Positions 21,191-53,800 of a stretch of DNA of 64,000 nucleotides are shown here, one piece after another (the first letter of the stretch is position 1; each line of letters opens with the position of its first letter). The DNA is from Catajapyx aquilonaris (taxonomy: Eukaryota): the NCBI GenBank assembly GCA_000934665.2, contig KZ539085.1, forward strand, positions 1 to 64,000. The letters are read 5' to 3'. The notes beneath the pieces are model-generated. The model had not been told where the DNA came from and searched no databases. It saw only the letters and a program-made list of their open reading frames with translations. The translations under genes were made by a program, and so were the position numbers.

Positions 21191-21271
21191 GGGTCACACA
21201 TGTTCAGGAAAAGTGATAAGAATAGAGAAAAATAGAAGAAAAAATATATGGAGATTTGTGGGGTGGTAGGG

Positions 21272-21326
<55 letters not shown>

Positions 21327-22424: not shown

Positions 22425-22936
22425 CAGGGTCCAATCCCTCAAGTTCCTGTCCAAAGGAATCTGACCCCTCAAGTTCCTGTCCAAAGGAATCTGATCCCTC
22501 AAGTACCTGTCCAAAGGAATCTGATCCCTCAAGTTCCTGTCCAAAGGAATCTGATCCCTCATGTTCCTGTCCGGCGGAATCTGATCCCTCAAGTTCCTGT
22601 CCAGCGGAATCTGATCCCTCAAGTTCCTGTCCAAAGGAATCTGATCCCTCAAGTACCTGTCCAAAGGAATCTGATCCCTCATGTGCCTGTCCAGCGGAAT
22701 CTGATCCCTCATGTTCCTGTCCAGCAGGGTGTGATCCCTCAAGTTCCTGGGCTAATATCCAGCAGAGTCCGATCCCTCAGGCTCATATCCAGGAGGGTCC
22801 GATCCCTCATGTTCCGGGGCTCATACCAGCAGGGTCCAATCCCTCAAGTTCCTGTCCGGCAGGATCTGATCCCTCAGGTTCATATCCATCAGGGTCCAAT
22901 CCCGCACCTTCCTGTCAATCAGAGTCCGATCCCTCA
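22425..22936 (+). repeat. 30-bp minisatellite (unit CCCTCAAGTTCCTGTCCAAAGGAATCTGAT)
   Basis: About 10 near-perfect units at 22436-22740, followed by more diverged units. Confidence 0.95.
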
Positions 22937-23158
22937 GTCTGGCGATACACATTGCTGGACTCAACAAACCTACCTACATGGATGGGAGGTAAGTTATGAA
23001 ATGCGTGGTATATCCGCCAACTATTGGGGCGTTTGACTCAGTACATCAGATCCAAGTAGCCTTTTTCAGAGGAAATTTGCAAAAAAAATTAGTATTGGTA
23101 ACCAATCTAGCTTTACCCATGTACAGGAACTTCAAAAAATAACAGACATGGTCTACTT

Positions 23159-24031
23159 ACAAGGGAACGGTCAGGGTCGGATACCTCCGATTTGGTTGAA
23201 ACTTGCTTGAGGGGTCATTCATGTGCGATAGACACAGTGGTGAAAGTTTTAGCTCGTAACGTCCAGCCGTTCCCGAGATATGAGCGACAGAATCATCCGA
23301 ATTTTGGCAGCGCGCATTTGCTGGGAGCCGCTCTGCCAGCTCCAAATCCCTTCTACCTTGATTCCCCCCGCCCCCTTTGCCCCCTTTCTTCCATCCCATA
23401 CCACCCCACTCCCCCCACCAACATTTTCGTTTTCCATTGTTTCTTTGCTCTGGTATTTATTATGAGACCATCAAGCTGCTTTCTTTCACTTCTGCCAACT
23501 GCGAATAAAGACGAGCTTCTGTACCTAAAATTGCGTAATGGGAAACCTATTCAGCCTTATCAAAATATGTATGGCGTTTTATAATCTCTCCTGCCCAATC
23601 CGATTGCGAATCTGTCGATATTATTTTTTAGCAAAGCTCACATTATTTAGTAAATGTGACCTGTTGACAATTATTTTGTGTTCGCGTTGGGGAGAAGTGA
23701 AAGAAAGCAGCTTGATGGTCTCATAATAAATACCGGAGCAAAGAAACAATGGAAAATGAAAATGTTGGTGGGGGAGTGGGGGATGGTGGTATGGGATGGA
23801 AGAAAGGGGGTAAAGGGGGTGGGGGGAATCAAGGTAGAAGGGATTTGGAGCTGGCAGAGCGGTTCCCGGCAAATGCGCGCGGCCAAAATTGGGATGTTTC
23901 TGTCACTCATATCTCGGGAACAGCTGAACGTTGCGAACTAAAACTTTCACCACTGTGTCTTTCGCACATGAATGACCCCTCAAGCAAGTTTCAACCAAAC
24001 CGGAGGTATCCAACGCTGACCTTTCCCTTGT
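23159..24031. mobile_element. Foldback non-autonomous DNA transposon (~330-bp arms)
   Basis: 23159-23490 is the reverse complement of ~23695-24031. This produces mirror ORFs on both strands. Confidence 0.85.
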
Positions 24032-25469
24032 TAGTTGACCAGCTGCATGACCGAATATGACAATCACTAATATTGGTTCTCTTTACCTAATGTGACTATC
24101 AAACTGCTTCCCTTGTTGGTCACTTCTGCCATTGATTGATTTATCATGGATTATCACGAACTGTATCATTTGGTATGCTATGGACTCTCCTACATCTAGT
24201 TTGTTTTCCTGAACTCGTCAAATTTTAGTATACTTGTCCAAAGAACCCCATCCCCACCCTCTCCTCACAACTCACTTGTCATTCCTTTTCCTCGTTCCTT
24301 TCTTCCTCTCCTCTCCCTCAGGGTAGCCGCAGACATTGTCGGAAACTACCATAATGACAATCTGCATTGGAGGTAAATTATGAAACACTTGGTATATCCT
24401 TGGTATATCCATCAGCGAATGGGGTGTTGGACTCACAAGCGAGGTCACAATGTTGGTGTCAGGGATTTTAATAATTCTGCCTGTGCAGCTACGGGCATTT
24501 TTGCGATAGAGCGGACATGAAGCGACGATTATTTTTTTCGTTGAATACCGCGTTTTATTACACCAGTCGGATGCTCAACATCTCTACTAAACAATGCCAA
24601 CCTTAAAATTGCCCTGTGTTGCTGTTCTTTGGCACCAGCTGCTCATACTTTCAACTGTGTGCGCCGGCGGCCTTTTTGTGTCTGGGGACACGCGCGGCTT
24701 TTGGCGCTTCTGTAAGCATTGCCATTCATTTGATCACTTCTCAAGTGAGCCTGTTGGATGCAGCTTGATGTCCTCTTTCGATTGATGTGCTTAAATTGTC
24801 ATAGGGTGATCTCTGTATGCGTCAGTTTCAGTAACTGACCAGAGTCATCCAAAAGTTTTGCTTCGTTACTAAAATTTCTCGTACACACCCTATACCAATG
24901 ATTTGGAGCGTCACACTTGCAAACCTCCGTGGGAGTCATGTAATACAGCAGTGTGCAAAGATTCAGCCAATACCATACCTTCTTGTATTTATTTGGATGG
25001 TAACGAACCAAAGCAACCACCTGCCGCCGAGCGTGCTCCCTCCGATCTCGGCTTCCAGCTCATACAGTGGGGCAGATAATAAGTAAATCTATGGCCAAAA
25101 ATGCAGAAATTTTTATGTAATGGTTTTCAATGCCGCTGATTTCAGATCTGATGTCAAAAATTCAAAATTTAAAATGGCAGATACAATGTGGCAGACAGCA
25201 TGTGCGAGAATTGGACAGATATACAGTATTAGTGTCAGAATTAGTTTCTGGGGGCATTAGAGGGCTCTGCTTTCAAATTTGATGTAAAAAGTTAGAAATC
25301 AAAGTGGCGCAATGTGTTATCCAGATATACCCTGATGCTACCTCTGATTTTTGGGGGAGGAAAGGGGAGGGATACAGCTCCAGAGGAGGGCCTGAACCAT
25401 GGTTATAGAAGACTCAGGTTAGGTCACTCCCACCCACCCCCTGCCGAGGGGTTTTGCAGAGGGTGCTCA

Positions 25470-25716
25470 CCTGAGAGCGCCATGAGACATTTCCCAGAGC
25501 AATTATGTGGCAACCCTAGCGGACTAGGCTGAACTTTATAGGTACAAAAGGGAAGCGGTACATGTGGGCCCAATATGGCCGCCGGCGCCCATGTTGGGTC
25601 CCCCAATGTAGCGCTTCCATTTTGTACCTATAAAGTTCAGTGTAGTCCGGTAGGGTCGCCACATAATTTCTCTGGGAAATGTCTCATGGCGCTCTCAGGT
25701 GAGCACCCGCTGCAAA
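25470..25716. repeat. Near-perfect inverted repeat (MITE-like)
   Basis: CCTGAGAGCGCCATGAGACATTTCCCAGAG / CTCTGGGAAATGTCTCATGGCGCTCTCAGG. Confidence 0.8.
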
Positions 25717-26431
25717 ACACCCTGTCAGGTGATAAGCCCAGAAGATAGGGGTAGTGTCCGTGGGCTGGCCCGAACTCTTCAATGGTTCTTATTTATGAAG
25801 CTGAAAACAAATTTTCACAAATCCCTCGGGTTATAAACAGTTACCTCTATTTACAATGCCACTGCAAGATGGATGGTCCGGAAGTTAATTGTCTGTAGCG
25901 GTCAAGGTGGTAGGTGGTGACAGCTAGTCTTTGGTTCTTCCCAGTCATGAGAGGCTCCCGCTTTTTATAGGCCATTAATTTAAAAATCTGCATTTATCTG
26001 AATATTTGCAGGTCTGGATTTAGTGGAAAATTGACTGAAATGACCCATTTTCAATTACCTTCATTTATAGGCATAATAAATTTTTATAGAGGGTCACATT
26101 ATGACTCCTTATACATATGCATACACGTATAATAATTATCACATGGTCTATTATTTTAATTTCAAATGGTAACGTGTCTGTGGTACTGAAGAACTTCCTT
26201 GTCTTTCACTGCCAGAGATAATTTCTGTACTTACGAGCCAAATTGTAATTTGCTGTTATAAATTTTTGAATAGACATTTATCAAAATGTTTTCCCCTCTA
26301 GTCAGTTCATAACTTCATCTGTCAGCCTGGTCCCTAAAGACTGGTGTGTAGGCAGGCAGCACCCTTTTCATACTGGGTTACATCTAACATACACAATCAT
26401 CACGGCATAGTCCCATGATGAGCCATGATGA

Positions 26432-26657
26432 CCGAAGCAGGTTGGCATGGTGGATAAGGCGTCCGACTGCTAATCGGGAGGTCCTGGGTTCGCATCCCGG
26501 GGCCAGCAACCCTGACTGTGGTTTTCTGTGGTTTTCCACGGTCTTTCTAGGATAATTCCGGGGTCGCTTCCGTATAATAGGCCACAGCCACTTCCTTCCC
26601 TATCCTTGGAGGTTGAAAGGCAATGCTGGGCCAACCTTCCTAATATCAATTATAAAA
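26432..26657 (+). mobile_element. tRNA-Ser(GCT)-like-headed SINE
   Basis: Nearly identical to 47390-47616. TSD TCCCATGATGAG at 26411-26422 and 26658-26669. Confidence 0.9.
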
Positions 26658-27409
26658 TCCCATGATGAGGTATACAGTATAGTCAGCGATGACCAGGCCA
26701 TACGACCCAGCCATCTCAATCGACCAATACATGAGAATCCTCTGATGACTGGTCAGGTGTCCTGATGTGTCTCGTTTTAATTATGTGTACGTCCTGAAGT
26801 GATAAAACAGCTCACAAATACTACCCCTGAAAAGGTTCTGAACGGCAGAAAATCGCACGCTTTGGTTCGTTACTTTTTTTGGGGGTTCGTTACCCAGGGT
26901 TTTGTTGTGCTATGATACAAAGAAAAGCAGATACCGGTACGGAAAGGTGACCAATGGATTCCTCACTCTTTTCTTCTCTAGACTCTAGAGCATCTCTATA
27001 CTGCTGCCATTACAACCACTTAGAATTCGTAGAGTTATTACGCAGTGTAACCAGGTGCAGAATTGCGTGTACTCAAAACTTCGGTTCGTTACTGTGTTTG
27101 TTCTCACTCCTGTGGCGCTATCGAATGGTATTATTTTTGTCGGATTTGTGGCAAAATTCAGTCCTATCTACCTGGAACTCGATACAAAAAAACAGACTCC
27201 CCAAAGGTTTTTCACAAGCATGGAAAATTGCAATGAAAGTTCAAAAAAAACGTCTGAACTTTGGTTTGTTACCGCAAAAAGGCCCCTATGCCTTAGTATG
27301 AACCCGTGTTGAGCGTAGGGAGAATGTGCGATACTCAAAAATTTGCGACATAAATGCTGTTAAACAAATCCTGCATAATCCATGAGAGACGAGCTTTGAG
27401 GCATTTATT

Positions 27410-27482
27410 GACCATGTGGCTCAGAGTCAATGTGCCAGACTCATAACCGTGAGATCGGTGGTTCAAGTATCTAGGGGAAGCC
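27410..27482 (+). pseudogene. Degenerate tRNA-Met-like sequence or SINE head
   Basis: TGTGGCTCAGAG...GACTCATAACC...GGTTCAAG, with a CAT-containing loop. The acceptor stem does not pair. Confidence 0.4.
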
Positions 27483-27523
27483 ATTTTTTCCCTCCCACTT
27501 ATCAATGCGGTCCTTAAGTAACA

Positions 27524-28125
27524 TACAGTAAAACTTCTATAAGTCGAATCTCCATGGGACCGGGAAAAAACTTCGAGTTATAGAAGATTCAAGTTAAAGA
27601 AGTTCGGCCTTTTTTTGAGCACATAACTCTATAAGGAAGCCGACCTTTATATTCAGCGACAAAATGTGTTCAAAACTTAAAAATAACTCTCACTATCACA
27701 CTTACAATGTTCCTTATTGTTTTGTTGTGAAAAAAATCTCTGTTATGGACATTTGCCTACTCTTAGACTCAAGGATTCAATTGTCACAATCGAGTCAAAC
27801 ACTTCTTTCGGTACGTCTGGTAGACTAAGATCAGGAAATTGAGCCTTTCTGTACATGTGGCCTACTCTTGACCCTTCGGCTGGGAAATGAGAAAATTCTC
27901 TGTACTCGCCAAATGAACTTCGACTTAGGGAGACTGAAAATGCATTGAAATCCCGTCGTAAGGCCCTGCCAGCACTTTGAGTTATGGAGAACTTTGAGTT
28001 ATAGAAATTCGAGTTAGGGAAGTTTATTTCCTATTCTTTTACATTGTGACGAACCAAGCTCATCATTTTCTTCGACTTAGAGAACTTCGACTTAGGGAAG
28101 TTCGACATATAGAAGTTTTACTGTA
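27524..28125. mobile_element. Tigger/pogo-type deletion derivative
   Basis: TA-flanked TIRs CAGTAAAACTTCTATAAGTCGAA / TTCGACATATAGAAGTTTTACTG. Minus-strand remnant QMSITEIFF resembles the Tigger C-terminus. Confidence 0.8.
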
Positions 28126-29278
28126 TGTATAATATGTAAATCACATTGAAATTATACATTTTTCCCTTTTTTTAAATTCTTATTATTACCAGTAGATGTG
28201 CATTATTCCTCCTTTTTTAGCCCTGCCTTGAAAATTCCTGTTCAGAATTGCTGTCTATTAGAAAGCTACATAAGGTGTTAAGGAATTGCTTCGACAAATT
28301 AACGAATTTGGAAGATGATGGAGCAGCACATTAGGCAGGATGATATTCATCATAGAAACAAGAGAAGCAATAAGTCAAATGACACATTGCACAACTTACA
28401 AAAGTGTTTTTTAAAAACACTGACATGGTTTTTTGTGGATCGTGACGCGGAAAACCTACCTCATGAACATTTCACAAAAATTTCCATAGGCCTACCATGT
28501 GTCAGTTTTGAATGGAACTATCCATAACGAAAGCATTTTTGCAGAAATTGGGGTGAACAATAATATTATTGATGATGGATGATTGAATGAATTTCCATGC
28601 AATTCTATTGGGAAGATGTTTCCCATTGCTGTTATATTAGAAATGAACAGGTTTGAAGGCACTTGATGAAGTTTTTTTACTTGTCTATAAAAATTGCAAG
28701 TCTGGAATTTGCATAATTTACATGTATGTGATTGCTGTAAAACATGGCAATCCTGATGCACCTTCTGTAGTTAATGTACATTAGCATATTATGTTTAAGA
28801 GCTACTACATATCTAAGAAAAACCACATTCGTGTAACATGAAATATCTGTACCTCTTCCACACCATTCTGCACCTGTTTCCTATAGTGTAAGCAGATAGA
28901 TTTGCATGGAGGACAGATTGAGCATTGGCATTCCACCTGTGCAAAGAACACTGCTAGTACATGATAGAAAAGCTTGTGAGATTAATGCAACTCAAAAAAT
29001 TGAGTATGATCTGGCATTGCTGTAAAAATTAAGATAAAAATTCCTGCACATTCCTAATTTTACCAAATGCCCATTTGAATGACAGAATGATAAGTTGCCA
29101 ACCTGTCTTTAGCAGTACAACTCGGCCTTAGGCTGAGTCACAGTAAACTTCACTGAGGTCAACAATGACAAATTAAGCGTAATCATCAGTTGTCGATATA
29201 CCTTCAGTTGTGCAACTCATTACAAGTAATACCTTGGCTGATGGTACTCTTGCTAATAATTTGACCTGTCATGCACAG

Positions 29279-29749
29279 AATCGTCAGCAAGGACCCCTAT
29301 CATCACTGGCCAGTGCCTGCTCTGTAGCCCGCCTGGGAGGTGGGGATGGAGGAGAAGAGTTAAGCCGTACCCTGACAGCACTGAGCCTGGATGGAGCCTC
29401 ATCGTCCTTGTCACTGCCCTCTCTCACCTCCCCATCTTCATCCCCTTCACCCCACCCAAGGAGGATACGACCACAAGAAATACCAGTAGTGAGCAAGCAT
29501 AACAACAATCACAACAACTGTGGCTCACCTACTGGTATGTCATATGCATCTGCAACTGCAGCAAGTGTGTACCCCATGCAACAGCCTGATGTTGGAGGTG
29601 GAGGAGATGCCCCAAACATGAGAGGGGGTATGGGTGATGGTCCTACCCAAACTTCTCCATCGATCTCACCCACACTCAGCCATAACCCACCCCATCATAT
29701 GTTGCAGCAGCATCATAGTCCAACAGAGAAACCTTTGTCAACATACCAG
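29279..29749 (+). CDS. PAN3: PAN3 exon 2 (low-complexity N-terminal region)
   Basis: Acceptor CACAG|AAT continues ESKLATYLA-NRQ. Donor CAG|GTAATA. Phases 0/0. Confidence 0.85.
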
Positions 29750-30434
29750 GTAATACTTTTATTGGAATGGTGGTTATGGATTGACCCCTTATACTGAACA
29801 TCTTCATTTTTCAACATCCATATGAGTAATCAATGGAGAGTTGGGGTTTTGTTTAGGTCAGTTGTTTGGGGGAGTGAAATCAACTAATGGTACCATCTTG
29901 AGAATGTCCTTTATACTAAAAGGAGACAGGACACACCTTTTGCAAAAAGGATCACTATTTTGGGAGCATTTATAGGAGGGTAGTGGGCAGAGGCGTGCAT
30001 TAAATTGTCAATCCATTGTTTGGCAGTGGTGGATTGTCAAACTTAACAGTGTGTGGGGGGGGGGGGGGGGGGGGNGGGGGGCTCCTTTGTTCCCAAGATG
30101 GGTAAAATGCAAATATATTCCCTCCTTTATTTGCTGCCACATTTACAACAGTAACTTCGCTAAAGGCTCTAACTCGAGCTTCCTAGATTGCACCCTAAGG
30201 CTATCTGGCTGGCATAGGAGAGGGTAAGAGTGGTAGAAGAGTTTTTGAGCAGTGGGAGGAAACAGGAGAACCCTGAGAAAAACCAAATGCGTATTGAGAG
30301 CACCTTTAAAAATTGTTTTCACATGAGAAGGTTTTTTGTCTGAATAAAAATCAATCAGCAGCACAGTTGGTAATTAAAGGCATTCAGAGAGATTGTACAG
30401 TTCATTGGACTGATGTTTTGCATGCATTTTGCAG

Positions 30435-31065
30435 GAGAATGTTGGAGGAACAACGTATTTCTTTGTTGCCGATGAGTCTTCATTGGGGCCAGGGGGAAAC
30501 GGTGGAGGTTCAGGAAGTACAGGGAGTGGAGTTTCTGGAGGAGGAGTGGTGAGAGAAGATCTTGCTCCTCCTCCCATTGTACTTCCGCAGTACACCGCTT
30601 ACCCAGGGCCACCTACACATCTCTTGGGATCCATTGTGGGAAGTGATGAGGCTGTTGGCCGTGGAGCAGGCAGTGGAGGGGTTGTGGGTGGAGGTGGAGC
30701 AGGAGGTAGTGGACATCCCAGCATCCCAGTACAAATTGCCAGTGCTTTGAAGAATAGGCGAGGAGGTGGGGGGAACCCAAGAGGAACCCAATCATCCCCC
30801 AGCAGCACTAGCTTTTTTGCCAATGAGGAGCTGCGAGGGGAAATACTTCGAGCTAGTTTGCTCCGATTAGCCAGAGCTGATCCCCAACAGTGCCCTGACC
30901 TTCCCAGTGAAGTTGATGCCTACCATGAGTTGGTACCCCTAGAGCCAGGTGGAGGATCAGTTCAAGGAATCGGCAGCAAGTCGATGACCTTTGGATACAC
31001 GACCTCGGTGTACAAGGCTACCGGCGTGAAATCAGGACTGCAATATTGCCTCAGGCGAATTCATG
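30435..31065 (+). CDS. PAN3: PAN3 exon 3
   Basis: Conserved PAN3 motifs QENVGGTTYF, LPSEVDAYHELVPLE and FGYTTSVYKA...YCLRRIHG. Acceptor TTGCAG, donor G|GTAAGA. Confidence 0.95.
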
Positions 31066-31614
31066 GTAAGATCGAGTTTAGCAAGAACATTCAGTTTGTG
31101 TTGATTGATTGCTCTTTTAATGATGATGATGATGATATAATAATATTGGGTAGGCATGAGGTAGAACATGGACCTTATTTAATGCATATGTTGAAACATC
31201 TGGAGGAGCTTGTTCTGCTGCAACTCCTTGGTCCATGGGTGCATAGGGGAGGTGCCCAGGGAGGGTACTGTAGCAAGCTTCAAGTAGATATGGACCGTTT
31301 GTATGCCAGACTTTTTTTTTTGTGGGCCATAGGCAGAGAAGGGGGTGCAAGTCAACCATTTTAGGCATTACAGGGGATAGGTCACTAATACTAAAGTCTG
31401 GTCCCCCTCTTTATCGCGTTCAGGGGGTGGAAATGCGTTTTCTGGCACCTGCAGCGATTGTCGGGATGCCTGGCATGAGTGACTACCCCCTTGGTATTGA
31501 TAATTGGTTATAGAAAGTGTTAGTAACTGCCCAGAATTTTAATTATTATGACATAAGTTAATGATAGCCATTCTTTGAGTATTATACTGTTTCCTAAACC
31601 GAAACTTTCATGTA

Positions 31615-32507
31615 TACAAGGTGTGATCCAAAATTTTCGGGATTTAGGATATACAGTGCAAACCAGTAGAGGTATGAACTTGTGGCGCTAGGGGGTGCTA
31701 GATGCATCTTTCAGCTATTAGTCTGAAAAATATCATTTTCATAGGTGCACATGTTTCTGAGTTTTGGCAGTTTTCTTGTGTTCTGCAATATTTCGAAATG
31801 GCTGATGTGATGGAGCAAAGGATTTGGGTCAAATTTTGCTTCAAGCTCAAAGAAACTTTGGCTGCAGCCCACCAAATGCTGACCAAGGCTTTTGATGAGC
31901 AAGCTGTAAACCAAGCAATAACATACAAGTAGTTTAAGCGCTCTAAAAATGGCGGACCCAGTTTGCAGCAAAATCAACTCAATGCAGATCATTTTCTTTG
32001 ACATTTGAGGAATTGTGCATAATTATGGAGTATGTTTCTTCCACATGGTGAAATTGTCAACAGGAAGTCTTACTGCGATGATTTGAGACGATTTAGGCTG
32101 AAATGGCCGGAAATGTGGGAGAACAGAGACTGATTGTTGCACCATGACAATGCGCCTGCACACACCTCATGCTTCCTGACAAAAAACAATATGACCACGG
32201 TCCCCCACCCTGCCTATTCGTTTGTCCTGGCCCAATGTGATTTCTATCTCTTTCCTAAAATGAAATTTGGGTTGAAAAGAAGACATTTTGACTCCACTAA
32301 AGAGATCTAAGCAAAATCGCAGCAGGTGCTGAACACGCTACAGTTGGCCAATTTTTTTTGGGTGCTTCCAAAAATTGGAAATTCCCTGGGATCGTTGTAT
32401 ACGAGCCCAAGGTGACTACTTTGAGGGTGATGGAGACAACTAGTCTGAAAATGAGTTTTTCACCCGGTCGTATCACCAGTTCTGAAAATTTTGGGTCACA
32501 CCTCGTA
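31615..32507 (+). mobile_element. Defective mariner element
   Basis: TA-flanked TIRs. Remnants MEQRIWVKFCFKL, LHHDNAPAH and PHPAYS...CDFYLFPKMK, with stops and deletions. Confidence 0.9.
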
Positions 32508-32928
32508 CGTTATGCTCAAATCCCGAAAACGGCCATTGGGCGAAAAAACAAAAAAAACAAAAACGGCCAGACCATAGAATGATAATTGTCAATCCATCCA
32601 TCCTGCGGAATGGATGGTTTGACATGGATCATTCTGCAGTCTGGACGGTTTTCGGGGTTTGAACCTAACATACAGGGTGTTTAAACTTTTTTTTCCGAAC
32701 AGTTATCGGAAATATTGCACTATAAGCTGCTACTTTGTAAGCAGTGATTTGCAACCGGTTTGTCGGAGGAATGGGGAAGGTTCCCTGCGAATCTTAGGTT
32801 GAAGTGGCTTACAAAGGAGCAGCTTAGTGCAATATTTCCGATAACTGTTTGGACAAAAAGTTGAAACACACTGTATACATTCATTTTTTCCCAATGTAGT
32901 ACCATGTTTGAAACATCGTGCAATTAGC

Positions 32929-33370
32929 ATTCATTCATTCATTCATTTCACTCACGGCATATTCCCATCAAGATGGGGTTACCAACTATGACCAGGTACA
33001 ATCCACCTGGCCATCTTTTACAACCAGTATAATGAATCCTCTGTTGACTGGTCAGGCCACGCAAAGGATATAATGGATAGGATGATGATGAAAAGGATGG
33101 CATTAATACATTCAGACAGGCAAACACTCGCCCAATGTACACATATAAACATACAAAAATTCATATAACAATTATGCAAAAACAACGTACATTGTCCAGC
33201 ACGTAATGGTGTGTTCGACGGGTAATGTAAACACCAGTCACCAAGGCAGACGACATCTCACCCAAAGGTGCTAGTTGACGATCGTCTCCAGGGCGATGGT
33301 GTTGACGAGAGCATGTAAATAGTCAGGAACCCACCAGACTTGCGACCACCCTCAGGGACTGCTATAGCCT
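32929..33370 (-). mobile_element. 3' end fragment of an L2/CR1-type non-LTR element
   Basis: (TGAA)n tail on the minus strand (CATT repeats at 32928-32947), preceded by a stem-loop-forming segment also found at ~26688-26757. Confidence 0.45.
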
Positions 33371-34053
33371 CAGATAGCTTTTGTAAAAATATTAGTTTCA
33401 GTGAGCTATGGCAATAAAAAATGTGGTACCCTCTACCATGTCCTTTAAAAATAATACAGATGACAATTCTGGAAGGTTCCTAGCACTTTCTGTGCCCATT
33501 TTAAGTGCAAAAATTTGCAAATTAATGTGTTTCAAGCTCATGTTTTCACAATTAATTCACCTCGATTCACTTCATATTTTAGAACTGGACTATCAATATG
33601 GGGGGGGAAGGAAAGTGACTTCATACTACTCCAACCTAGAAGCATTGAAATCCAAGGCTATCCTCTGGGATGCGGAATTGGTTTTGCATCATCATACAGA
33701 TGTTTCATCTTCTAGTTCATCGTATCATAGTTTCATTGTACTATCATGAACAACTTGGGAGAGATATTTCTCTCATCTCAGAATTATCCTCCTACACATT
33801 GCCCATTATAGGGCATGGAAGTTGAGATGGACCTCATAAAGCACACGATGTTCACCCCCTTCCCTGCTGTCCACTAAGCAGCAATGCAATTGAATAAATG
33901 ATTCTGAGCAGGAGTAGGCCAACTGGCTTCTGAGATACGATGCTGTGATCTCTGCAGTGTATGCATTTGGCTTATAAATGGTTCTAAACATGCTATAGTT
34001 AGGTATATTTATTATGTATTATGCTACTTTTCATGTGTACTTTTCTTTTGTAG

Positions 34054-34380
34054 GTTTCCGGTTAGCTACGAGCAAATGCATGGTGCTGGTAGATGTGTGG
34101 AAGCGTCTGCAGCACTCAAACTTAGTCCAGTTAAAAGAGGTGTTTACCACAAAGGCATTCGGGGACAACTCGATAGTGTTCGTATATGATTACCACCCAG
34201 GAGCAGAGACTCTTCAGGCCATCCACTTTCCAAGGCCACAGCATCAGGCCCCTCAACACCAGCACCTCAGGAACGGACTTATCTCCCCCTATGGGGGAAG
34301 TGCTGGTCAACAAGACATGGATTCAGTGCCAAGGCCATTTTCGCAGCAGAAAACGTCCCTATCACATAGGCATGGAGGAG
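34054..34380 (+). CDS. PAN3: PAN3 exon 4 (pseudokinase)
   Basis: GFRL...WKRLQHSNLVQLKEVFTTKAFGDNSIVFVYDYHPGAETL. Acceptor TTGTAG, donor G|GTCAGT. Phases 1/1. Confidence 0.95.
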
Positions 34381-34506
34381 GTCAGTTCAAGTATTTCTAA
34401 AGTTAATTTTTGAAAGCTTGGCAGATATCTGATGAGCATTTTTGGCACATCCAATGTGTCTTGTCTCAAAATTTTATCTTTACTTATATGACACTTTCTC
34501 TCACAG

Positions 34507-35149
34507 GTCTTGTGCCAGAGAATTTACTCTGGACATATGTTGTCCAACTCAGCGCGGCACTACGCACTGTTCATGCGGCAGGTCTAGCCTGCCGGACTTT
34601 AGATCCCGGGAAAGTTCTTGTAACTGGTGGTGGGAATAGGGGAGCTGGAGATAGAGCCTCAGGCAATGGCTCTGGAAAGGGTGGCTCCAGGTTGCGCCTA
34701 TGGCTAAATTGCTGTGGAATATTTGATGTGCTCACTTTTGACCCTGCCGTGTCCAATCCTTTGGCGATGATCCCACATTTCCAGCAGGAAGACTTAGTGT
34801 CGCTAGGAAAGCTAGTCTTAGCTCTTGCCTGCAACTCAGTTGTGGCTGTTCAGAGGGAGCAACTACAAACATCTCTTGATCTGGTGTCACGAAATTACTC
34901 ATCAGATCTCCGCAACTTGGTTATATACCTTTTGTCAAGTGGGCCTGGAGCTGGAATGGGAAGTGCGGCTGGAGGAACCAACCGCAGCATCAACGATATC
35001 ATGCCTATGATTGGAGCTCGGTTCTACTCACAACTGGATGCTGCGCAAGTCAGGGCAGATATGCTGGAAGCTGAGCTATCCAAGGAAGTTGAAAATGGAA
35101 GGCTCTTCCGACTGCTTTCGAAGTTAGCAGTTGTTAACGAAAGACCTGA
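34507..35149 (+). CDS. PAN3: PAN3 exon 5 (pseudokinase C-lobe and coiled coil)
   Basis: LVPENLLWTYVVQL...QQEDLVSLGKLVLALAC...IMPMIGARFY...KEVENGRLFRLLSKLAVVNERPE. Donor GA|GTGAGT. Confidence 0.95.
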
Positions 35150-36516
35150 GTGAGTTGAGGAGGGTTTATGTTTCATGGTTTTTAATTGCAATGAAATGAA
35201 GGTACAAGTCTACAGTGGAAGTGTCATCGATAGTACCTAGGTTCACACACATGTTCACGAAGTAACATCCCCATCATTAAGTGACAGTGTGTTTGAGAAG
35301 TACAATAATGTTGACGGTCTCTTATCCGTAACCCATGAGATTATAAATTTTTCAGAATTCAGAATGGTGCAAGGTTTAACATACACTGTATCATCGTACA
35401 TACCAGTAATAGATCCACCACCACTCCTACCACTCCTGCATACTGTAACCTAGCTGTGACATAGGCTACACTGCATATGTGCAGTAAAAGCACATTACCC
35501 CTAGATTTAGGATCTTGGTACAGTCCCAAGAACAAAGTTGGTTGACGCTGCAGGCCTTCTCTGACCTTCCTGTATCCGACTCAAATTAATTGGCTCTTTT
35601 TGGGCCTAGTTCACTGCTTTAGGCATGAGTTCGTCTATTTATTACCATTTATTTGATACCGTAATGGCGGGGATTGGCAGAGCATCCTGCCAAAATGGAG
35701 GGCCTGCCGTCTCCAACTTTATGCTCGGGACTGAACATCAGTGGACTTATCCGTTTGGCACAGACGCTTTTTGAAATTCAGTGTCTTACGCTCTCAGGCT
35801 TTCCGCGATCCAAGTGGAATTCCTAAGTGAGTCAGGCTGCCCAATTCATCAATGTGTAGGGACAATTTGTCATTACCATTAAGCTCATTAAGAAATGAAG
35901 CTCATTAAGCTCTTATCTCTGTGTGAGACACCTAATTCTGTGAAGGGCAGGAGCACAGTAGCCGACAGAAGGCTTATTTGATTGATTCTGCATCTCTCTG
36001 TTGGCCACTTTGGATTGGCCCACTCTGTGAGGTGTCCTTTTGGCAACAATTTGGGTAAAAGGTCTGGAAGTCAACAATGGGAGTTGAAGAACTGCCCCAA
36101 AACTATATCTGAATAGGGAGATGGACAGTCTGATGCCATCATCATGGACAGTCTGATGCCATCATCATGGTCCTGGCAACCATTGCCTTCACCTTGGGAC
36201 ATACTTGGCACCAAATGTGAACTTTGGTATACAGATGACCTTCATGAAAAAAACTTCTGGTTTTTGGAGCTTTTTTGTTTTCATAATTTCTGATAAGAGA
36301 TTGTGAACTACATTACATCTTTTAAGTAGAAATTGATTATGCTATTCTTCAATGGCTTTTAAGGAAATCACATGTCCCTAAATAGAGGGTTTTATTTTGT
36401 GAAGAACAAGAACATTGTTAGAAAAAAACCAAGGAATTTTCCTTGTAGGTATGGGTTGGAGGGCCACTGCAGAAGGCAGAGACTTGAAATTGTATTTTTG
36501 AAGCCTCACATGACTA

Positions 36517-46412: not shown

Positions 46413-47096
46413 GAATGACCCAGAATGGAAAGGTCATAAGTCCATGAGACAAAATTTTACAGGGGAGACAAAAAACTGAAATGCGGCATTGTAAATTCGT
46501 CAAGGTGGTCGGACTCGCGGGAATGTTGATCTTAGTCGACATTGGCATCATGTTGAGCAGAGTTCGGTGGAAAACGCGTCATGACAGATGCGTGAGAGCG
46601 ATTTAAAGGGACGGGACTTACGTCCTTTTCATTCTGAAAGATGGCAGGATGAGAAAATCTGTGCCGTTCTGTCACATATAACATAACACAAAATAATACA
46701 TGTATTACTTTGTGTTACTTATGTTATCATGTGACAGAACGGCACAGATTTTCTCATCCTGCCATCTTTCAGAATGAAAGGGACGTAAGTCCCGTCCCTT
46801 TACTTCAACATTTTCCTGAATACATGTAGGTATTTACCGGATAATGACACGATGGACTCATGTCAGTGCATTTTCATTCCGAAGCAGCAATTTCAGCATG
46901 GAAAAGGTGTAAGTCTAGATCTTCCCCCTTTGCCATTCTGGAGGCAATTCTGACATGCTAAAATATAGCATATGGGTGGGGACTTTCGCTCCCTCTCATA
47001 CTGGATCTTATGCCCTCCATGCTGAAGAGTTTCCTTCCGCGAAAAAGTCATTTTGACCAAAAGGTGGACTTATGCCCTTTCCATTCTGGGTCATTC
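46413..47096. mobile_element. Non-autonomous DNA element with a 4-bp TSD and an internal near-perfect foldback (~46606-46801)
   Basis: TIRs GAATGACCCAGAATGGAAAGG / CCTTTCCATTCTGGGTCATTC. AGTT on both sides. Confidence 0.8.
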
Positions 47097-47389
47097 AGTT
47101 TATCCCACAGTCCCTCTCCAGCAATAAATGTGTTTTCTCATCAAATACTGTAATGCAGGCCTATTAAGCATCTGTTTTGTATTACATTAGTTAAATTTTA
47201 AACAGCTGAGTGTGGATGTAAAAGATCAATACTGAACTATTTCTTCGAAAACCATATAGTATTATACATTATTTCATGGTTTTATACACGTTTTTTGTTG
47301 TTTCATTAAGTTCCTTTGCTCCTCGGATTATCGGACCATGCCCCGGTCCCTTGGGTGACAGATAATTGGAGTTCTACTGTACTTGATGA

Positions 47390-47616
47390 GAAGCAGGTCA
47401 GCATAGTGGATAGGGCGTCCGACTGCTAATCGGGAGGTCCTGGGTTCGAATCCCGGGGCCGGCAACCCTGAAGGTGGTTTTCTCTGGTTTTCCACGGTCT
47501 TTCTAGGATAATTCCGGGGTCGCTTCCGTATTATAGGCCACAGCCGCTTCCTTCCTTCCCTATCCTTGGAGGTTGAAAGGCAATGCTGGGCCAACCTCCT
47601 TAATATCAATTATAAA
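47390..47616 (+). mobile_element. tRNA-Ser(GCT)-like-headed SINE
   Basis: TSD GTACTTGATGAGA at 47379-47391 and 47617-47629. A/B boxes intact. Confidence 0.9.
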
Positions 47617-47674
47617 GTACTTGATGAGAGAAACTTGCAGTCAAAATGATGCTGTACTTAACCCTTCATGTGTC

Positions 47675-47680
47675 TTTATT
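47675..47680 (-). promoter_or_regulatory. Candidate polyadenylation signal of the minus-strand two-ORF transcript
   Basis: TTTATT on the plus strand is AATAAA on the minus strand, ~110 nt after the ORF2 stop. Confidence 0.5.
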
Positions 47681-47788
47681 AAAACATGGTTACAAAAAGT
47701 GCTGCAAAAACGTGAGCATCAAAGGGCATGGGACGGAATATGGCTGGACGGATACAATTCTACAGATGCTCATTGTTAACTGTTGCAA

Positions 47789-48013
47789 TCAGACTGCAAA
47801 TTCCTTCTGATGTGGAATGAAAGGCTGCTGTGGGTTTGGCTGTTGCACTGGTGCCTGGTGCAAGGCCTCCATCTTCATCTCATACTTGCTGGAAGACGGT
47901 CGCCAAGGTGTGCGTGGTGGGAGACAACGATGTCCCATGGTCACCCAGGCCATCACAACGCCAATAACAAACAGGGCCACAGCAGCAATTGGAGGCCAGT
48001 AGAAGTGGAACAT
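47789..48013 (-). CDS. 74-aa small membrane protein (candidate second cistron)
   Basis: ATG in AAAC-ATG context, 2 nt after the upstream stop. Hydrophobic segment PIAAVALFVIGVVMAWVTM, Q/P-rich tail, C-terminal EFAV. Confidence 0.6.
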   Translation of the reverse strand: MFHFYWPPIAAVALFVIGVVMAWVTMGHRCLPPRTPWRPSSSKYEMKMEALHQAPVQQPNPQQPFIPHQKEFAV

Positions 48014-48015
48014 GT

Positions 48016-48148
48016 TTAATCAGTTGATGCAAAAGATGCTGAGGAACGAAGTGGACGATATGAGGTATCAGCCTTGGCAGTCAAGAGCTCCGATAGGTCC
48101 AGCGGTGTCTGCTTGTTGGGTCCTCTTATGTAGATGGGCAGAAGAAAT
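48016..48148 (-). CDS. Small single-pass membrane protein, exon 2
   Basis: Acceptor TTTATCATCAG. Phase 2 joins GNR-FLLPIYIRGPNKQTPLDLSELL...ASTD*. Total 111 aa. Confidence 0.75.
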
Positions 48149-48259
48149 CTGATGATAAAGATAAGCAATTACTTGCTTTTTAAAAACGATTATAGGCATG
48201 TGTGAGAGAAGATGGTTTGCAAATGGAAGATTGGAGTGCAAACTCTGGTATGCTCAAGT

Positions 48260-48415
48260 AGTGTTGGACATTAATAGCATCATACTGCTAGCAACATTTT
48301 CCGAAGCGGCAGAAGAACGAATCGAAGCAATGGATAATACAAGCAAGATTCGTTCTTCTGCCGCTTCGGAAAATGTCGCCAGCAGTATGACGCAATTAAT
48401 GTCCAACACTGTACA
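48260..48415. repeat. Hairpin MITE (second copy ~61735-61902)
   Basis: AGTGTTGGACAT...ATGTCCAACACT arms with an internal CCGAAGCGGCAGAAGA / TCTTCTGCCGCTTCGG pair. Confidence 0.8.
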
Positions 48416-49164
48416 ACACCTTGTAATTATAAGGTAACAGCAACACTAGCAAAATCATCCTTAAATCAATTCATGCTCATGTCAGTGGTTTTTATGGTTT
48501 ATCACATATCTACGAGGGAATAATTCATCCAACATCGATGGAATTTCTGATGCAAAATGTCATTATCATCTGGTAAAACACTGTATAATCAAGCTGAATG
48601 CATGGGGCACTTGTGACCCATTGTCTAATCACAAGACTACAGTACCTGCCAAAACATATGGAACTTGCCTGGTTTTCCCCAAGCCAAAAATTTTACTCAT
48701 TACCGGTCCATACCCACCCAGCCAGACTATTGTTCACTACGGCCATATGGAAAGATCTCTGCAATGATAATACCAGGCCATCAGAGGGTGGAAGAGTGGG
48801 GGATGATCAAATTGAAGACCTGATAGCAAAAAGGGCAGATGTCATGAAAAATGCAATTTGCAGATAGCGACGCCAAGTGGTAGTCAGTAGCAATGCGGAG
48901 GTCCCCACAAATTCCATTCCGTGAAAATGGCAGTAGTCTGGTAGAAAAACATCGACAAAGATAGTGTGTTATAATGTCACCGTGCATGGGAAGCAGGGAA
49001 GTTTTTCTTTGTTTTCTCGAAACTATCCATCATTGACATCTGCCCTTTTTGCTATCAGGTCTTCAATTATATGGGCTTGGGGTAAATCAAAGGGCTTTAT
49101 AGCACAAAAGCCTTGGAAGCCATTGTTGTGGCTAAATTATAGGCCTTATAAATGAGCATTGTGG

Positions 49165-49445
49165 TATTATTATTATTATTATTATTCTAAGAATGATTGG
49201 TTATTCCATGAGAGCCGTGTGGCCTCTTCGGGGATCCTTTTAATGCACTTTAATTTAACTTAAATTCTTGTCTTTATTCAATTCCTGTGCTGATGATGGG
49301 TTTTGATTGTGGGAGGAAATTGGAGAAAACCCCTGTAAACCCGGAGTAACTGCATCAAAACTCTTTATACATATGTAGGTCCTCTGCCTGACCCAGGGAT
49401 TGAACTGTAAGGCTCTCGCTATAACCACCATGCCACCATGCTACC
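49165..49445 (-). mobile_element. SINE with V-domain-like core, copy 2
   Basis: GGTGGCATGGTGG...AGTTCAATCCC head, TTTCCTCCCACAATCAAAA core, (AAT)n tail. Confidence 0.7.
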
Positions 49446-49551
49446 TCATGAGCATTATGGTAGTATACTCCAGATATAAGACTACAAGGACCATGGAAAT
49501 CAATATTCTAGAACTGCGGTATCTTATATCCAAATACACAGGCCATATATG

Positions 49552-49862
49552 CAGTGCCGGATTTACCCCCCTCGCCGCCCTTAGGCAGTTGAGATCCCCC
49601 CCCATTGCAGCTTTAAAATTTCATTTTCCTCGTGCGTTCTCCTAATTTTATTTTATCTACAAAAAATTATATCGTACCTTATGATGGCAGCCCTTCGGCA
49701 ATTGCCTTTTCTGCCCATAGCGGTAAATCAAGTACTCAAAAAGGTGATTTTTTTGTGACCTTGCCTTTATTTCTTATTATTGTATTTGACACAAATATTT
49801 ATTGCAACTCGCGGCCGCCCCTAGGCAAGTGTCTACTGTGCCTAATGGGAAATCCGGCGCTA
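49552..49862. mobile_element. hAT-type MITE
   Basis: TIRs CAGTGCCGGATTT / AAATCCGGCGCTA. 8-bp TSD CATATATG at 49544-49551 and 49863-49870. Confidence 0.85.
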
Positions 49863-49903
49863 CATATATGGAAGCAAGGCGGGACCAACCTCTCGAGTTG
49901 GCT

Positions 49904-50442
49904 TTAACCCTTCACTACGTAGGTGGCCGAAACACCTTTAACTACGTAGGTGGAGCCTGAGCGGCTCGAACGGTATATTTAGATCTCTGCTTATCAGCTC
50001 AATTGTTATATTGGACTTTTCACATACAGAAAGTGCAGTTCAGATAATTAGGCTTCCGAAAACGTAAAAATCACATGCTGAATCAGCATATTCCGACAGA
50101 AAAAAATTCGTAACAAGGAACAGGTCCCACCTGGAGCCGCTCAGGCTCCACCAACATAGTAAAGGGTGCTGTCGTTTTCCCTATTCAGACGCTCTCCACG
50201 AAGATAGGGAAAACGACAGCACCCTTTACTACGTAGGCGGAGCCTGAGCGGCTCCATAGGTGGGACCTGTTCCTCGTTACCAATTTTTTTCAGCCAAAGA
50301 ATGGGGACTAAAAAATTTTCTTTTTCTTTTCATGCTTAGGAAGGTTTTTGTGACAAAGTCACGGAAGGACAGGGCGATTAAAAAGTTATATGCGTTTAAA
50401 TAGTGGTTGGACCCCCTCAGGCTCCACCTACGTTAGGGTTAA
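49904..50442. mobile_element. piggyBac-type MITE with an internal inverted repeat
   Basis: TTAACCCT...AGGGTTAA. Repeated CTACGTAGGTGGAGCCTGAG motifs in both orientations. Confidence 0.75.
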
Positions 50443-50658
50443 CCAAAGCCCTTATATCTGGAGTCGACTTTATTTTTAAAATGCAATGTTACTTTCTGTT
50501 AACATGAATTGTACTATTTATTACTGTTGAACACACATGTCCACACATGTAACTTGATGGCCCACTTTGCATGCACCCCTTTATACTTGTAGGCCCATTA
50601 CTAAATTTGCATCAATCTGACCCAACACTTGTTCCCAACAGTTAAACGGGTCACCCAC

Positions 50659-50861
50659 CTGTTGCCAGTGTCCGGATTCCTCCAGTAGTGACGATGCTGA
50701 GAGCAACAGCAGCAGATGACGTTAAGCAGGATGATTGCCACGCCCAGTACGGTACAGACAGCAATCCCTGCGTAGAATCCGGTGAAGTCTCCCCACTCTC
50801 GTCCAAACAGAGGATTCAGCCGGAATTCGTTGCTGTCCAGAGGTATCACGTCGTCGGACAT
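50659..50861 (-). CDS. Small single-pass membrane protein, coding exon 1
   Basis: MSDDVIPLDSNEFRLNPLFGREWGDFTGFYAGIAVCTVLGVAIILLNVICCCCSQHRHYWRNPDTGN. One TM helix with a juxtamembrane Cys cluster. Donor AG|GTGGGT. Upstream acceptor TATTTTAG ending at 51072. Confidence 0.8.
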
Positions 50862-53800
50862 ACTCTCTCACCACACCTTCGACAATGACAATCTTTGGCT
50901 GGCGTCGTGGACCCCGCCCTTACACTTTCCCTGTCCGATAGGCACACAGGTGGCAGCACTACCTTGTTGGAATTTTACACGGCAGATGGCCTAGGAGTCA
51001 TGACTTCTTTGGTACGGGGACCCGACTGTGAAAAGTGGCATCCGTCTGTGTCACGGTCTGTGTTTATGGTCCTAAAATAGTATGTGTTTTACTGAAAAGA
51101 TGTTTTAAAATGGGTTATTTTAAGCATTGCGTGTACGGCATATTTTGGGTGCGTGTGTGCACCGATTATTGTTGATTGGAGGCTGAAAACAATGGTGACA
51201 TATGTATATTCTTGGAGAAGAAAAAGGAGCATAAGAATTCCATAATGTATGTCCGGCATGATTTGGAACATATTGAGTGATAGTTCACGGGAATATGCAG
51301 CGTGCTGGTGATTTATTCCTATTTATTCCGTCTACATGCACGATGCACGGAACGATGAATTGTTGCAATTTTGTAGTGGACACTTCACATTTTAAAAGGA
51401 ATTGCTGAACCTTATAATAGGTAAACAGAGGTTAAGTGGTAGTTTATAGTTCATTGTCCTTCAAACTCATATAGGCAGTGCAATTCCAGTGGGGAACAGA
51501 ATTGGCATGTAGTGTAGATTTTATTCCCACCATCAAAATGTACTATCGGGTTCAAATACTTTTGGCCACTCTATCCTAGTCTTGAAGCAACTATTCGCAC
51601 AGACCCCCTGTTAAGGAGGTGTATGTATGAAGGGTTGCTTCAAGACCAGGATAAAGTGGCCAAAAGTATTTGAACCCGATAGTACGTCATATATATATAT
51701 TTTTTAAATTCCGATATTCCAATGTGTGGCAGCGGACCAATAATGGCCGCCTGTACATACAGTAGAGCAACCCTGCAAATCACATAATGGAAACATTTCA
51801 TCCTGGAAGTTAGCTAACCCCTGTGCTCCTCTTGCTCTCCTTATTGCCTTCCTGCCAGGGGCTATTATACCGAATATTTTCGGAAGAACCGTATGCAAAT
51901 CATTTCCGAAATTTAAATAGGACATATTTCCCGCAAAAAATTTCGAACCATATACGGTGCACCGTATCTGTAGATTACATATCGACCCCATTTTCCCAGC
52001 CTCCTCTCCACCACTCTGCTTCCCCATCCCGGGGAGGACTTATTGATTGTTTTTGGAGGGAGGCGGGGGGGAGGGGTAGAGCAGGGNNNNNNNNNNNNNN
52101 NNNNNNNNNNNNNNNNNGGGGTAGTGGTCCAAAAAGCAGATCGGCCCATTTTACTCCCTTCCCCCCTATCCTGCTCAAATATCGTATCTCACTGAATCCA
52201 ACTCTTATGCATAATAGTTCAGCATGGTTGTGCTACATATATGGCATGACCATACATACGTCTGGAAGAAGAGACCAGGTTTTTTGGAGGCTGTTAGAAA
52301 GAGGGGTGGATGAGGGAGGCGTGTCTGGATATCCGGATGGAACCGGCTGCTGGAGAGGAAGACTGGCGATGGTGGAGGCAGGGGAGGGGGGTTGAAAAGA
52401 AGAGAGGGGGTAAAAAAAAAAGGTATTGTGGAGGTAGTGAGAGCGCATGAGCGACGCGCCCCCCCTCAGTGAGGTACAGGGAGGGGTAGGTAGTGGAGGA
52501 GGGTTTCTAAAAAAGAGAAGCAGAAGAGAATCAGGGAAGAGACGAAGAAGAGCAGCAATACTGGCAGAGGACCTGAACAGTGCAGGAGGCGAAGGCACCG
52601 GTGTTGCGGTCACCTGGCCGATCCTAAGATCAGCAACATCCGCATCTGACCGGCGTGACTTACATCCACCTGAAGAAGGAAGAGGAGCAACGACCCACGA
52701 GGATTTTTAGGTGAGACACCTGACAGTTTGGGGGGATACCCCGAATTAATATTTCGAATTATAGACAATCAAACACTGCAATGCAGGTGGAAAAATGTGC
52801 ATTACAGATATCCATGCATGATATGTATCCGAATATTTTGAAGCAGGTGACATATGCATCTCGATATGTATCAACCCGGATGATACGGGAGCTGTGGGAA
52901 GGTGGGGAGGCGGGAAGTGGGAGGGGGTGAGTTGAGGGGAGTGGCGTAGGGAGGGAAGGGTGTGGTGGTAGGAGGGGTAAGTTGAGCAGTGGGAGGGAGA
53001 CGAGGTAGGTAGAGGAAGTAGGGGGTGTGTAGTCAAGAAGTGGGTGAATGTTGATAAGAAAGGTGTAGAGGTTATGTGGACATGAGTGGGGAGAATAACA
53101 TATGAGGTAGTTGGATGAAAGGTTGGCCTCGGTGGGTGATGTTGTTCAGACCCTGCCGTTTGATCTTTCTGAAGCGGGTACTTTACAAAAACACTATTAA
53201 AGATACGTAAAATATTCGACAACCGACGAATATGTGGGACTTTCATTGACAGAGTAGAGTCATGGGAAAAGGAAAAGCGACTCTCTATTTTAATCCTGCT
53301 TAGACACCCATTTTTCCCAGCGATGTACGACATGTCAGACACCATCATTGTAGAAGTCGACATTATATGTATGTGCTTGAATGGCTTCAACCTCTGTTGT
53401 CGTGGTGGGTGGCCCTTGTGTTTCTCCCATGATCCCAAAGTCCCTTCCGGCTTGGGAGACCCTGCCAGTAGACGAACATTTCCCAGCATAATTAGTGGGT
53501 TCTCTCTTACGGAACAGTAATCAGATTATGCAATAGTGAATATATGGAATATTGCATACCATATGTAAAAGGTTTTTAATCAATTTCATCAGCTATAAAA
53601 TAAACGTATATTTAAACCTTCAATAGTATTTACACGTTGTTAGTAGTGACCGACTATGTACAGTAGCCTTCCGTTGCCGTAAATATAGTTTAATTTGAAA
53701 CTTCATTTTATGTAAGTCATACGAGTTACGGCATAGTAACTATGCGATACAGTATTTAAAAATAGCTGACGTGAAGGCAATTTTTGCAGCCGCAATGTTA

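Follow-up and report, generated by a model that had tools for sequence, protein, structure and literature searches.

Two small open reading frames (ORFs) lie on the minus strand of contig KZ539085.1 of Catajapyx aquilonaris (assembly GCA_000934665.2), and the stop codon of the first, ORF1, is separated from the start codon of the second, ORF2, by only 2 nt. The locus raises the question of whether the two frames form a single gene, to which family such a gene belongs, and how a second protein could be made from its mRNA. In this study, positions 1 to 64,000 of the contig (64,000 nt, the window) were analyzed, and the locus was compared with transcript contigs, metagenome contigs, and protein collections. 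The locus is very probably a würmchen-type bicistronic gene, an arrangement that is already known and published for Drosophila würmchen. The explanation as a whole, in which the gene is an arthropod orthologue of würmchen and ORF2 is translated via leaky scanning, is considered probable.

Structure and Transcript of the Locus

The start codon of ORF1 is located at 50861–50859 on the minus strand, with an in-frame TGA 9 nt 5′ of the ATG. Its first coding exon extends to 50659, with GT directly after it; the acceptor AG occupies 48150–48149, and the second coding exon starts from 48148. The two exons together encode 111 aa. On the minus strand, the junction reads in the order ORF1 stop TAA (48018–48016), AC, and ORF2 ATG (48013–48011). 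ORF2 encodes 74 aa and stops at a TGA at 47791–47789. ORF1 and ORF2 each have one strongly hydrophobic 19-residue stretch, and they show no similarity to each other. ORF1 contains a CCCC cluster just past the helix and the motif YWRNPDTGN. The nearest AATAAA on the 3′ side is at 47680–47675, beyond ORF2.

Run X1 was the sole public run found to carry the stretch, and none recorded as RNA was found among carriers of it. Its contigs were mapped to 46500–52000, where 47640–47828 and most of the intron were without contig cover. A 579-nt contig with a depth of 154 matched the window with 0 mismatches and 0 gaps and joined 50917–50659 to 48148–47829. The 2510 nt skipped by this contig have the ends CT..AC on the plus strand, equal to GT..AG on the minus strand. 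The whole of ORF1 and 185 nt of ORF2, counted from its start, lie on the contig, which reads through an ATTAAA variant at 48020–48015 that overlaps the ORF1 stop. The predicted splice from 50659 to 48148 was confirmed. The sequence-only reading of this locus had given the coordinates, the splice, an ORF1 of 111 aa, and an ORF2 of 74 aa starting 2 nt downstream, and all of these were borne out by the sequence and the X1 contig. The CCCC cluster, the single transmembrane helix in each ORF, and the position of the first AATAAA downstream of ORF2, which it had also pointed out, were all present.

Conservation of ORF2

The length of ORF2 was compared with chance expectation. The 376-nt region 3′ of the ORF1 stop was shuffled 5000 times with its dinucleotides preserved, and an ATG-initiated ORF of at least 74 codons occurred in 10% of the shuffles. 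The length of ORF2 alone is not beyond chance.

ORF2 was scanned against metagenome contigs, and five loci (L001–L005) were returned. L001, a leafhopper-like contig of 1218 nt, was the sole true relative of ORF2 among the five. L002–L005 were rejected as pattern artefacts, which contain stops or match the hydrophobic stretch only. The ORF2 alignment gave no further loci in genome contigs and viral contigs. The ORF1 alignment matched nothing in viral contigs, and its two matches in genome contigs were chance matches of 19 residues in bacterial metagenome-assembled genomes (L006 and L007).

At 159–512, L001 encodes an ORF1 homologue of 117 aa, with 50% identity over 82 aa (E 7.4e-27). The ORF2 homologue of L001 has 56 aa and lies at 565–735, 52 nt past ORF1 and in another frame, with 51% identity over 47 aa (E 1.6e-12). 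There is no intron at the GNR site in L001. The third member of the L001 ORF1 cluster (P0007), which comes from a genomic contig, leaves the family right after ...NTG, and many exon-1-only gene calls among the inspected ORF1-profile matches do likewise. These departures place an intron at the same site, or within a few codons of it, across insects, and show L001 to be a spliced form. Both cistrons are found on one spliced contig in X1 (ORF1 and part of ORF2) and in L001 (both ORFs complete).

Residues 1–9 of ORF2 (MFHFYWPPI) are identical in the window and L001, and the four codon differences in this segment are all synonymous. For codons 1–27, dN was 0.31 and dS was 1.55. Over the whole alignment, the pN/pS values of ORF2 (0.405/0.754) were similar to those of ORF1 (0.377/0.791). 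The Smith–Waterman score was 124 in the ORF2 frame and at most 64 for other frame pairs, and a score of 124 was not attained in any of 5000 shuffles. In-place shuffling of the hydrophobic block gave a best score of 70. Identity at codon positions 1, 2, and 3 was 0.63, 0.81, and 0.52, respectively. The tails of the two proteins were unalignable after about residue 47; ORF2 of the window is 18 aa longer and ends in EFAV, and that of L001 ends in VSYA.

These comparisons indicate that ORF2 codes for protein and that purifying selection has preserved it downstream of ORF1 in both species, which are distant from each other. The co-transcribed pair of small membrane-protein ORFs proposed from the sequence alone is supported by the spliced contigs of X1 and L001 and by this conservation of ORF2. 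As a check, it had been proposed that ORF2 homologues should follow ORF1 on the same contig with dN below dS and with conserved spacing. An ORF2 homologue does follow ORF1 on L001, and dN is below dS over codons 1–27; the spacing is not conserved.

Probable Identification of the Gene as Würmchen-Type

The ORF1 profile (alignment A1) was searched against 1.84 billion representatives. It matched 110 proteins at E ≤ 1e-3, including 71 at E ≤ 1e-10. Names were looked up for 20 of the 110 matches. The named relatives were from aphids, a mealybug, stingless bees, a chalcid wasp, midges, beetles, and mayflies. They span Hemiptera, Hymenoptera, Diptera, Coleoptera, and Ephemeroptera, and nearly all are labelled uncharacterized or hypothetical. 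The nearest named relative of window ORF1 was from the mayfly Ephemera danica, with 59% identity over 69 aa. The profile matched two RefSeq proteins with the name "uncharacterized protein wrm1", XP_065218263.1 of Planococcus citri (E 1.1e-27) and XP_065350775.1 of Cloeon dipterum (E 2.2e-22). In blastp, window ORF1 matched the same two proteins at E 4.6e-22 and 3.5e-26, respectively. The ORF1 of L001 clusters at ≥90% with XP_054275686.1, a RefSeq "uncharacterized protein" of Macrosteles quadrilineatus. By this homology, the upstream cistron is assigned as a Wrm1 homologue, and its product is predicted to be a single-pass membrane protein.

Würmchen was reportedly first described by Königsmann et al. 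(Dev Biol 2020, 463:53), a report known here through citing papers. Drosophila würmchen1/2 is a bicistronic gene (PMC11475943). Wrm1 of the fly is a septate-junction transmembrane protein of 162 aa; larvae die when Wrm2, a transmembrane microprotein of 57 aa, is lost (PMC11475943). Würmchen is listed among the core components of septate junctions and is assigned no known domain (PMC8006247), and Würmchen 2 is listed as 57 aa (PMC13240139). According to these accounts of fly genetics, the two products are both made and required, at septate junctions and the apical membrane. The available text of the citing literature on würmchen contains no discussion of its conservation outside flies or of its translation mechanism.

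The second cistron has 74 aa in the window and 56 aa in L001, each with one hydrophobic helix, compared with 57 aa in the fly (PMC11475943). ORF2 may be the orthologue of fly Wrm2, as judged from its position beside a wrm1 orthologue, its size, and its single helix, and not from a sequence comparison. The sequence-only reading did not recognise the gene as the known würmchen (wrm1/wrm2).

Other searches returned no named family. Nothing at or near the Pfam cut-offs was found for ORF1 and ORF2 of the window or of L001. A k-mer protein search of 5.8 billion clusters gave no relative of ORF2 at near length and no match for ORF1 exon 1 at near and longer lengths. In the ESM Atlas, ORF1 exon 1 gave generic small-transmembrane look-alikes only (the best, at 0.95, in an unnamed arthropod cluster), and L001 ORF2 gave nothing above 0.86. 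Neither the window ORF2 sequence nor the L001 ORF2 sequence is present in a collection of 15 billion proteins. The expectation that gene predictors would half miss the pair was therefore correct, since the leafhopper ORF1 is a RefSeq "uncharacterized protein" and neither ORF2 is in the protein collection. A predicted complex of the Wrm1-like and Wrm2-like proteins of L001, run without alignments or controls, scored 0.00 and gave no answer, speaking neither for nor against binding.

Proposed Translation of ORF2

The distribution of ATG triplets between the two start codons was investigated. In the window, the 335 nt between the two starts contain 0 ATG, whichever frame is read (dinucleotide-shuffle mean 5.9, P=0.0004). 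In L001, there is 1 ATG in the 403 nt between the starts (shuffle mean 5.3, P=0.011), and this lone ATG starts an ORF of 24 codons, the end of which lies 316 nt ahead of ORF2. The density of ATG is ordinary in ORF2 (5 in 222 nt) and in the 3′ UTR (untranslated region; 5 in 149 nt). Fifteen full-length Wrm1 proteins together have 1953 residues, of which 6 (0.3%) are internal Met, and 10 of these proteins lack internal Met altogether. For comparison, the PAN3 ORF pieces of the window contain 2.3% Met (20/867), and the ORF2 proteins contain 5 in 74 and 4 in 56 residues. In green algae, bicistronic loci translated by leaky scanning are marked by a depletion of AUG ahead of ORF2 (PMC11892635). A reporter assay has also demonstrated leaky scanning for fly sloth1/2, whose two ORFs are 5 nt apart (PMC9681215).

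The contexts of the start codons were also compared. They are gagagtATGT (window) and tgaagaATGT (L001) for ORF1, and ttaaacATGT (window) and ctcatcATGT (L001) for ORF2. Compared directly with one another, all four starts have A at −3, and the AAAC form is found in window ORF2 only. L001 has two short upstream ATGs within 141–179, opening ORFs of 4 and 9 codons, and the second overlaps the ORF1 start. The second of these could divert ribosomes past ORF1 toward ORF2.

In the proposed mechanism, one capped, spliced mRNA would carry two cistrons, the first for a Wrm1-like single-pass membrane protein and the second for a Wrm2-like transmembrane microprotein. A fraction of the 40S subunits would pass the ORF1 AUG and, whichever the frame, would encounter no further AUG over the next 335 nt. 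These subunits would then initiate at the ORF2 AUG in its AAAC context. Because the spacing is not conserved, the upstream cistron is free of ATG, and Wrm1 is poor in Met, leaky scanning is favoured over termination-reinitiation. As the main mechanism, leaky scanning is given moderate confidence. The two mechanisms are not mutually exclusive.

Several points weigh against the würmchen and leaky-scanning interpretation. The link to würmchen rests on the NCBI wrm1 names of two RefSeq proteins and not on a D. melanogaster sequence, and the order of the fly cistrons is not stated in the citing accounts consulted for würmchen (PMC11475943, PMC8006247, PMC13240139). The DNA-level comparison of ORF2 is with one other species, L001. 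The X1 contig ends 40 nt short of the ORF2 stop, so that the last 13 codons and the 3′ end lie outside it, and X1 has no recorded library type. The Met counts of the Wrm1 proteins are not phylogenetically independent, and 5 of the 15 proteins have internal Met; P0010, which clusters with stingless-bee proteins, has two internal Met close to the C-terminus. With the protein held fixed, avoidance of out-of-frame ATG is marginal (P=0.05–0.06 in the window and 0.20–0.21 in L001); therefore, the ATG desert is for the most part a consequence of the scarcity of Met. The ORF1 AUG, with A at −3 in both species, is no obviously weak start, and its contrast to the ORF2 start lies in positions −2 and −1 only. 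Depletion of AUG near the stop can also be explained under reinitiation (PMC11892635). Translation of ORF2 in C. aquilonaris is itself inferred.

Alternative Explanations

The tight TAA-AC-ATG junction had been read from the sequence alone as termination-reinitiation, in which the 40S subunit would stay on the mRNA after the ORF1 TAA and restart at the ATG 2 nt on. The distance of 2 nt between stop and start in the window agrees with this mechanism. Selection against AUGs close to the stop would be expected under it as well (PMC11892635), and the Met codons near the end of ORF1 in P0010 would create very short ORFs, which are plausible for reinitiation. A conserved tight or overlapping stop–start arrangement was not found, as the spacer is 2 nt in the window and 52 nt in L001, and the ATG desert covers the whole of ORF1 and not just its end. 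Reinitiation after an ORF of 111–117 codons, the length of ORF1 in the two species, is inefficient without a dedicated cis-element. No such element was seen, and no search was aimed at one. Termination-reinitiation is quite unlikely on this evidence, and the ATG-free upstream cistron points to leaky scanning instead.

The remaining alternatives concern the transcript and the frame itself. A separate monocistronic transcript, started for instance at a promoter within the 2.5-kb intron, could be the main source of ORF2, with the bicistronic RNA being minor or untranslated for ORF2. This is consistent with the situation in Drosophila, where monocistronic isoforms accompany many dicistronic loci and just 45 of 159 annotated dicistronic pairs appear exclusively dicistronic (PMC4528330). 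A spliced contig carrying both ORFs was nevertheless found in both species, the start of ORF2 lies 2 nt past the ORF1 stop in the same exon, and the conserved ATG desert and the avoidance of Met in ORF1 would be purposeless under a separate transcript, which is thus a very unlikely main source of ORF2. If the gene were wrm1-like but monocistronic, ORF2 would be a frame left open by chance in its 3′ UTR; this would fit the frequency of ORFs of at least 74 codons in the shuffles (10%) and the lack of a family, Atlas, or protein-database match to ORF2. Set against it are the retention of ORF2 in L001 with synonymous changes only at the N-terminus, the alignment score of 124 in frame against at most 64 out of frame, which 0 of 5000 shuffles reach, and a size and topology that match the published second würmchen cistron (PMC11475943). 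The chance-frame explanation is already close to refuted and is regarded as extremely unlikely. A fusion of ORF1 and ORF2 by −1 frameshift or readthrough was also considered and was rejected; the frame of ORF2 is closed by a TGA 9 nt ahead of the ATG, the spacer of L001 is 52 nt, and no canonical slippery heptamer was seen on reading the junction.

C-Terminus of ORF1 and Possible Remodelling of the Junction

In the alignment of the Wrm1 family (A3), most insect proteins end in ...E[YF]xEL.KRES[DE][ILF]. ORF1 of the window stops before KRES[DE][ILF], at a point that aligns with ...ASYSES... of mayflies. A class I PDZ ligand has S or T, any residue, and a hydrophobic residue at the end. The KRES[DE][ILF] end fits this rule and would suit a septate-junction protein. 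A regex and tblastn scan found no downstream exon for the KRES[DE][ILF] tail. The peptide HSRESD at 46525–46508 was rejected as a tail exon, as it is internal with no stop after it and was attributed to chance. HQKEFAV at the end of ORF2 bears a faint likeness to HKRESDL, the tail of Wrm1, and this too was judged as chance. The EFAV end of ORF2 had been suggested as a PDZ ligand from the sequence alone; this end is not conserved, since L001 ORF2 ends in VSYA and the tails cannot be aligned there.

The tail-less ORF1, the longer ORF2, and the 2-nt spacer look like a compaction of the junction in this lineage. A wider scenario can be put forward only tentatively. In it, the bicistronic würmchen mRNA would be ancient (at least from mayflies and hemipterans to flies, and perhaps in crustacean-grade arthropods as well), Wrm1 would avoid methionine so that scanning reaches Wrm2, and the lineage of the window would have lost the Wrm1 tail, reduced the spacer to 2 nt, and extended the Wrm2 tail to EFAV. 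The docking role would perhaps have moved from Wrm1 to Wrm2. This scenario taken as a whole remains doubtful.

Comparison with Known Bicistronic Systems

The window gene resembles fly würmchen in that one mRNA carries two small transmembrane proteins, with ORF1 in the family that RefSeq names wrm1. The second protein of the fly is a transmembrane microprotein of 57 aa, and the predicted second proteins of L001 (56 aa) and the window (74 aa) resemble it in size and topology. Unlike the fly gene, ORF1 of the window has 111 aa instead of 162 aa and is without the ...KRES[DE][ILF] C-terminus of most insect members, and ORF2 is longer, with an unrelated Pro/Gln-rich tail. The spacer of this würmchen-type locus is 2 nt only.

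Drosophila sloth1/sloth2 (human SMIM4/C12orf73) likewise encode two small transmembrane peptides on one transcript (PMC9681215). The spacer is tiny in both systems (5 nt in sloth and 2 nt in the window), the downstream start context is better than the upstream one in sloth and may be so in the window, and leaky scanning is the supported mechanism, by reporter assay for sloth and by sequence inference for the window. The proteins are unrelated. The sloth peptides are paralogues acting in mitochondrial complex III assembly, whereas ORF1 and ORF2 of the window are dissimilar to each other, and the fly homologue of the window gene acts at epithelial junctions.

The leaky-scanning bicistronic loci of green algae (PMC7896298, PMC11892635) share with the window the depletion of AUG over the 5′ UTR, ORF1, and the inter-ORF region, a small ORF1, and the conservation of ORF pairs. 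They belong to another kingdom and to unrelated genes. The Kozak-like contexts of the algal ORF1 are measurably weak, unlike that of window ORF1 with its A at −3.

Features of the Locus and Surrounding Sequence

The features of the locus are collected in Table 1.

Table 1. Features of the würmchen-type locus in the window, in the order of transcription.
Feature	Position	Strand	Description and evidence
5′ UTR, to the X1 contig end	50862..50917	−	56 nt, 0 ATG
ORF1 (Wrm1-like), coding exon 1	50659..50861	−	Acidic N-terminus, transmembrane helix, juxtamembrane CCCC, YWRNPDTGN; Wrm1-family homology
Intron, 2510 nt, GT..AG	48149..50658	−	MITE-like palindromes inside; X1 contig joint; inverted repeats
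ORF1, coding exon 2 and TAA	48016..48148	−	FLLP...PLDLSEL motif; without the family C-terminal ...KRES[DE][ILF] tail
Intercistronic spacer AC, 2 nt	48014..48015	−	Sequence; 52 nt in L001
ORF2 (Wrm2-like), 74 aa and TGA	47789..48013	−	N-terminus MFHFYWPPI, transmembrane helix, basic then Pro/Gln-rich tail; X1 contig over 48013–47829
First AATAAA, presumed polyadenylation signal (predicted)	47675..47680	−	109 nt past the ORF2 stop

The intron contains three palindromes like those of miniature inverted-repeat transposable elements (MITE-like), at 48260–48410, 48810–49068, and 50132–50256, with arms of 64 nt at 94% complementarity, 35 nt at 100%, and 53 nt at 94%, respectively. Run X1 contains abundant copies related to these palindromes. 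The segment 47420–47603, a short way 3′ of the gene, has a word depth of about 8900 in X1, far above that of the gene, and is an abundant, probably transcribed repeat. No paralogue of ORF1 or ORF2 was found within the 64-kb window.

The window also carries the gene of PAN3, a poly(A)-nuclease subunit, on the plus strand at 17035–35150. It was recognised by a CCCH zinc finger at 17035–17544 (PF00642, E 5.6e-6) and by the start of the Pan3 pseudokinase domain at 34407–35150 (PF18101, E 1e-14). Two further plus-strand open frames, 6852–7313 and 7576–7932, at the 7316/7579 junction that had been read from the sequence alone as another candidate of this arrangement, are Arg/Ser-rich and Pro-rich and have no Pfam match.

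Significance of the Würmchen-Type Locus

The finding opens no new kind of system. Its new points may be a Wrm2-type cistron that is unannotated outside Drosophila, an upstream cistron that is ATG-free and Met-poor, and a junction remodelled in one lineage. For annotation, Wrm1 orthologues filed as "uncharacterized protein" across insects gain an identity. The Wrm2-type cistron is missing from the protein collections searched, and an essential microprotein family of the fly is thus uncalled outside Drosophila. The locus also shows that a reading of raw sequence can spot a real dicistronic gene of small ORFs.

The ATG-free upstream cistron, together with the scarcity of Met throughout the family, provides a cheap and testable argument on how the second protein is synthesized. 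It would be a case in which the translation mechanism constrains the composition of a protein. If the tentative scenario of an ancient mRNA with a remodelled junction is true, the demands of the protein encoded downstream would have acted on the sequence of Wrm1 over hundreds of millions of years, and docking to the junction scaffold may have shifted from the first protein to the second.

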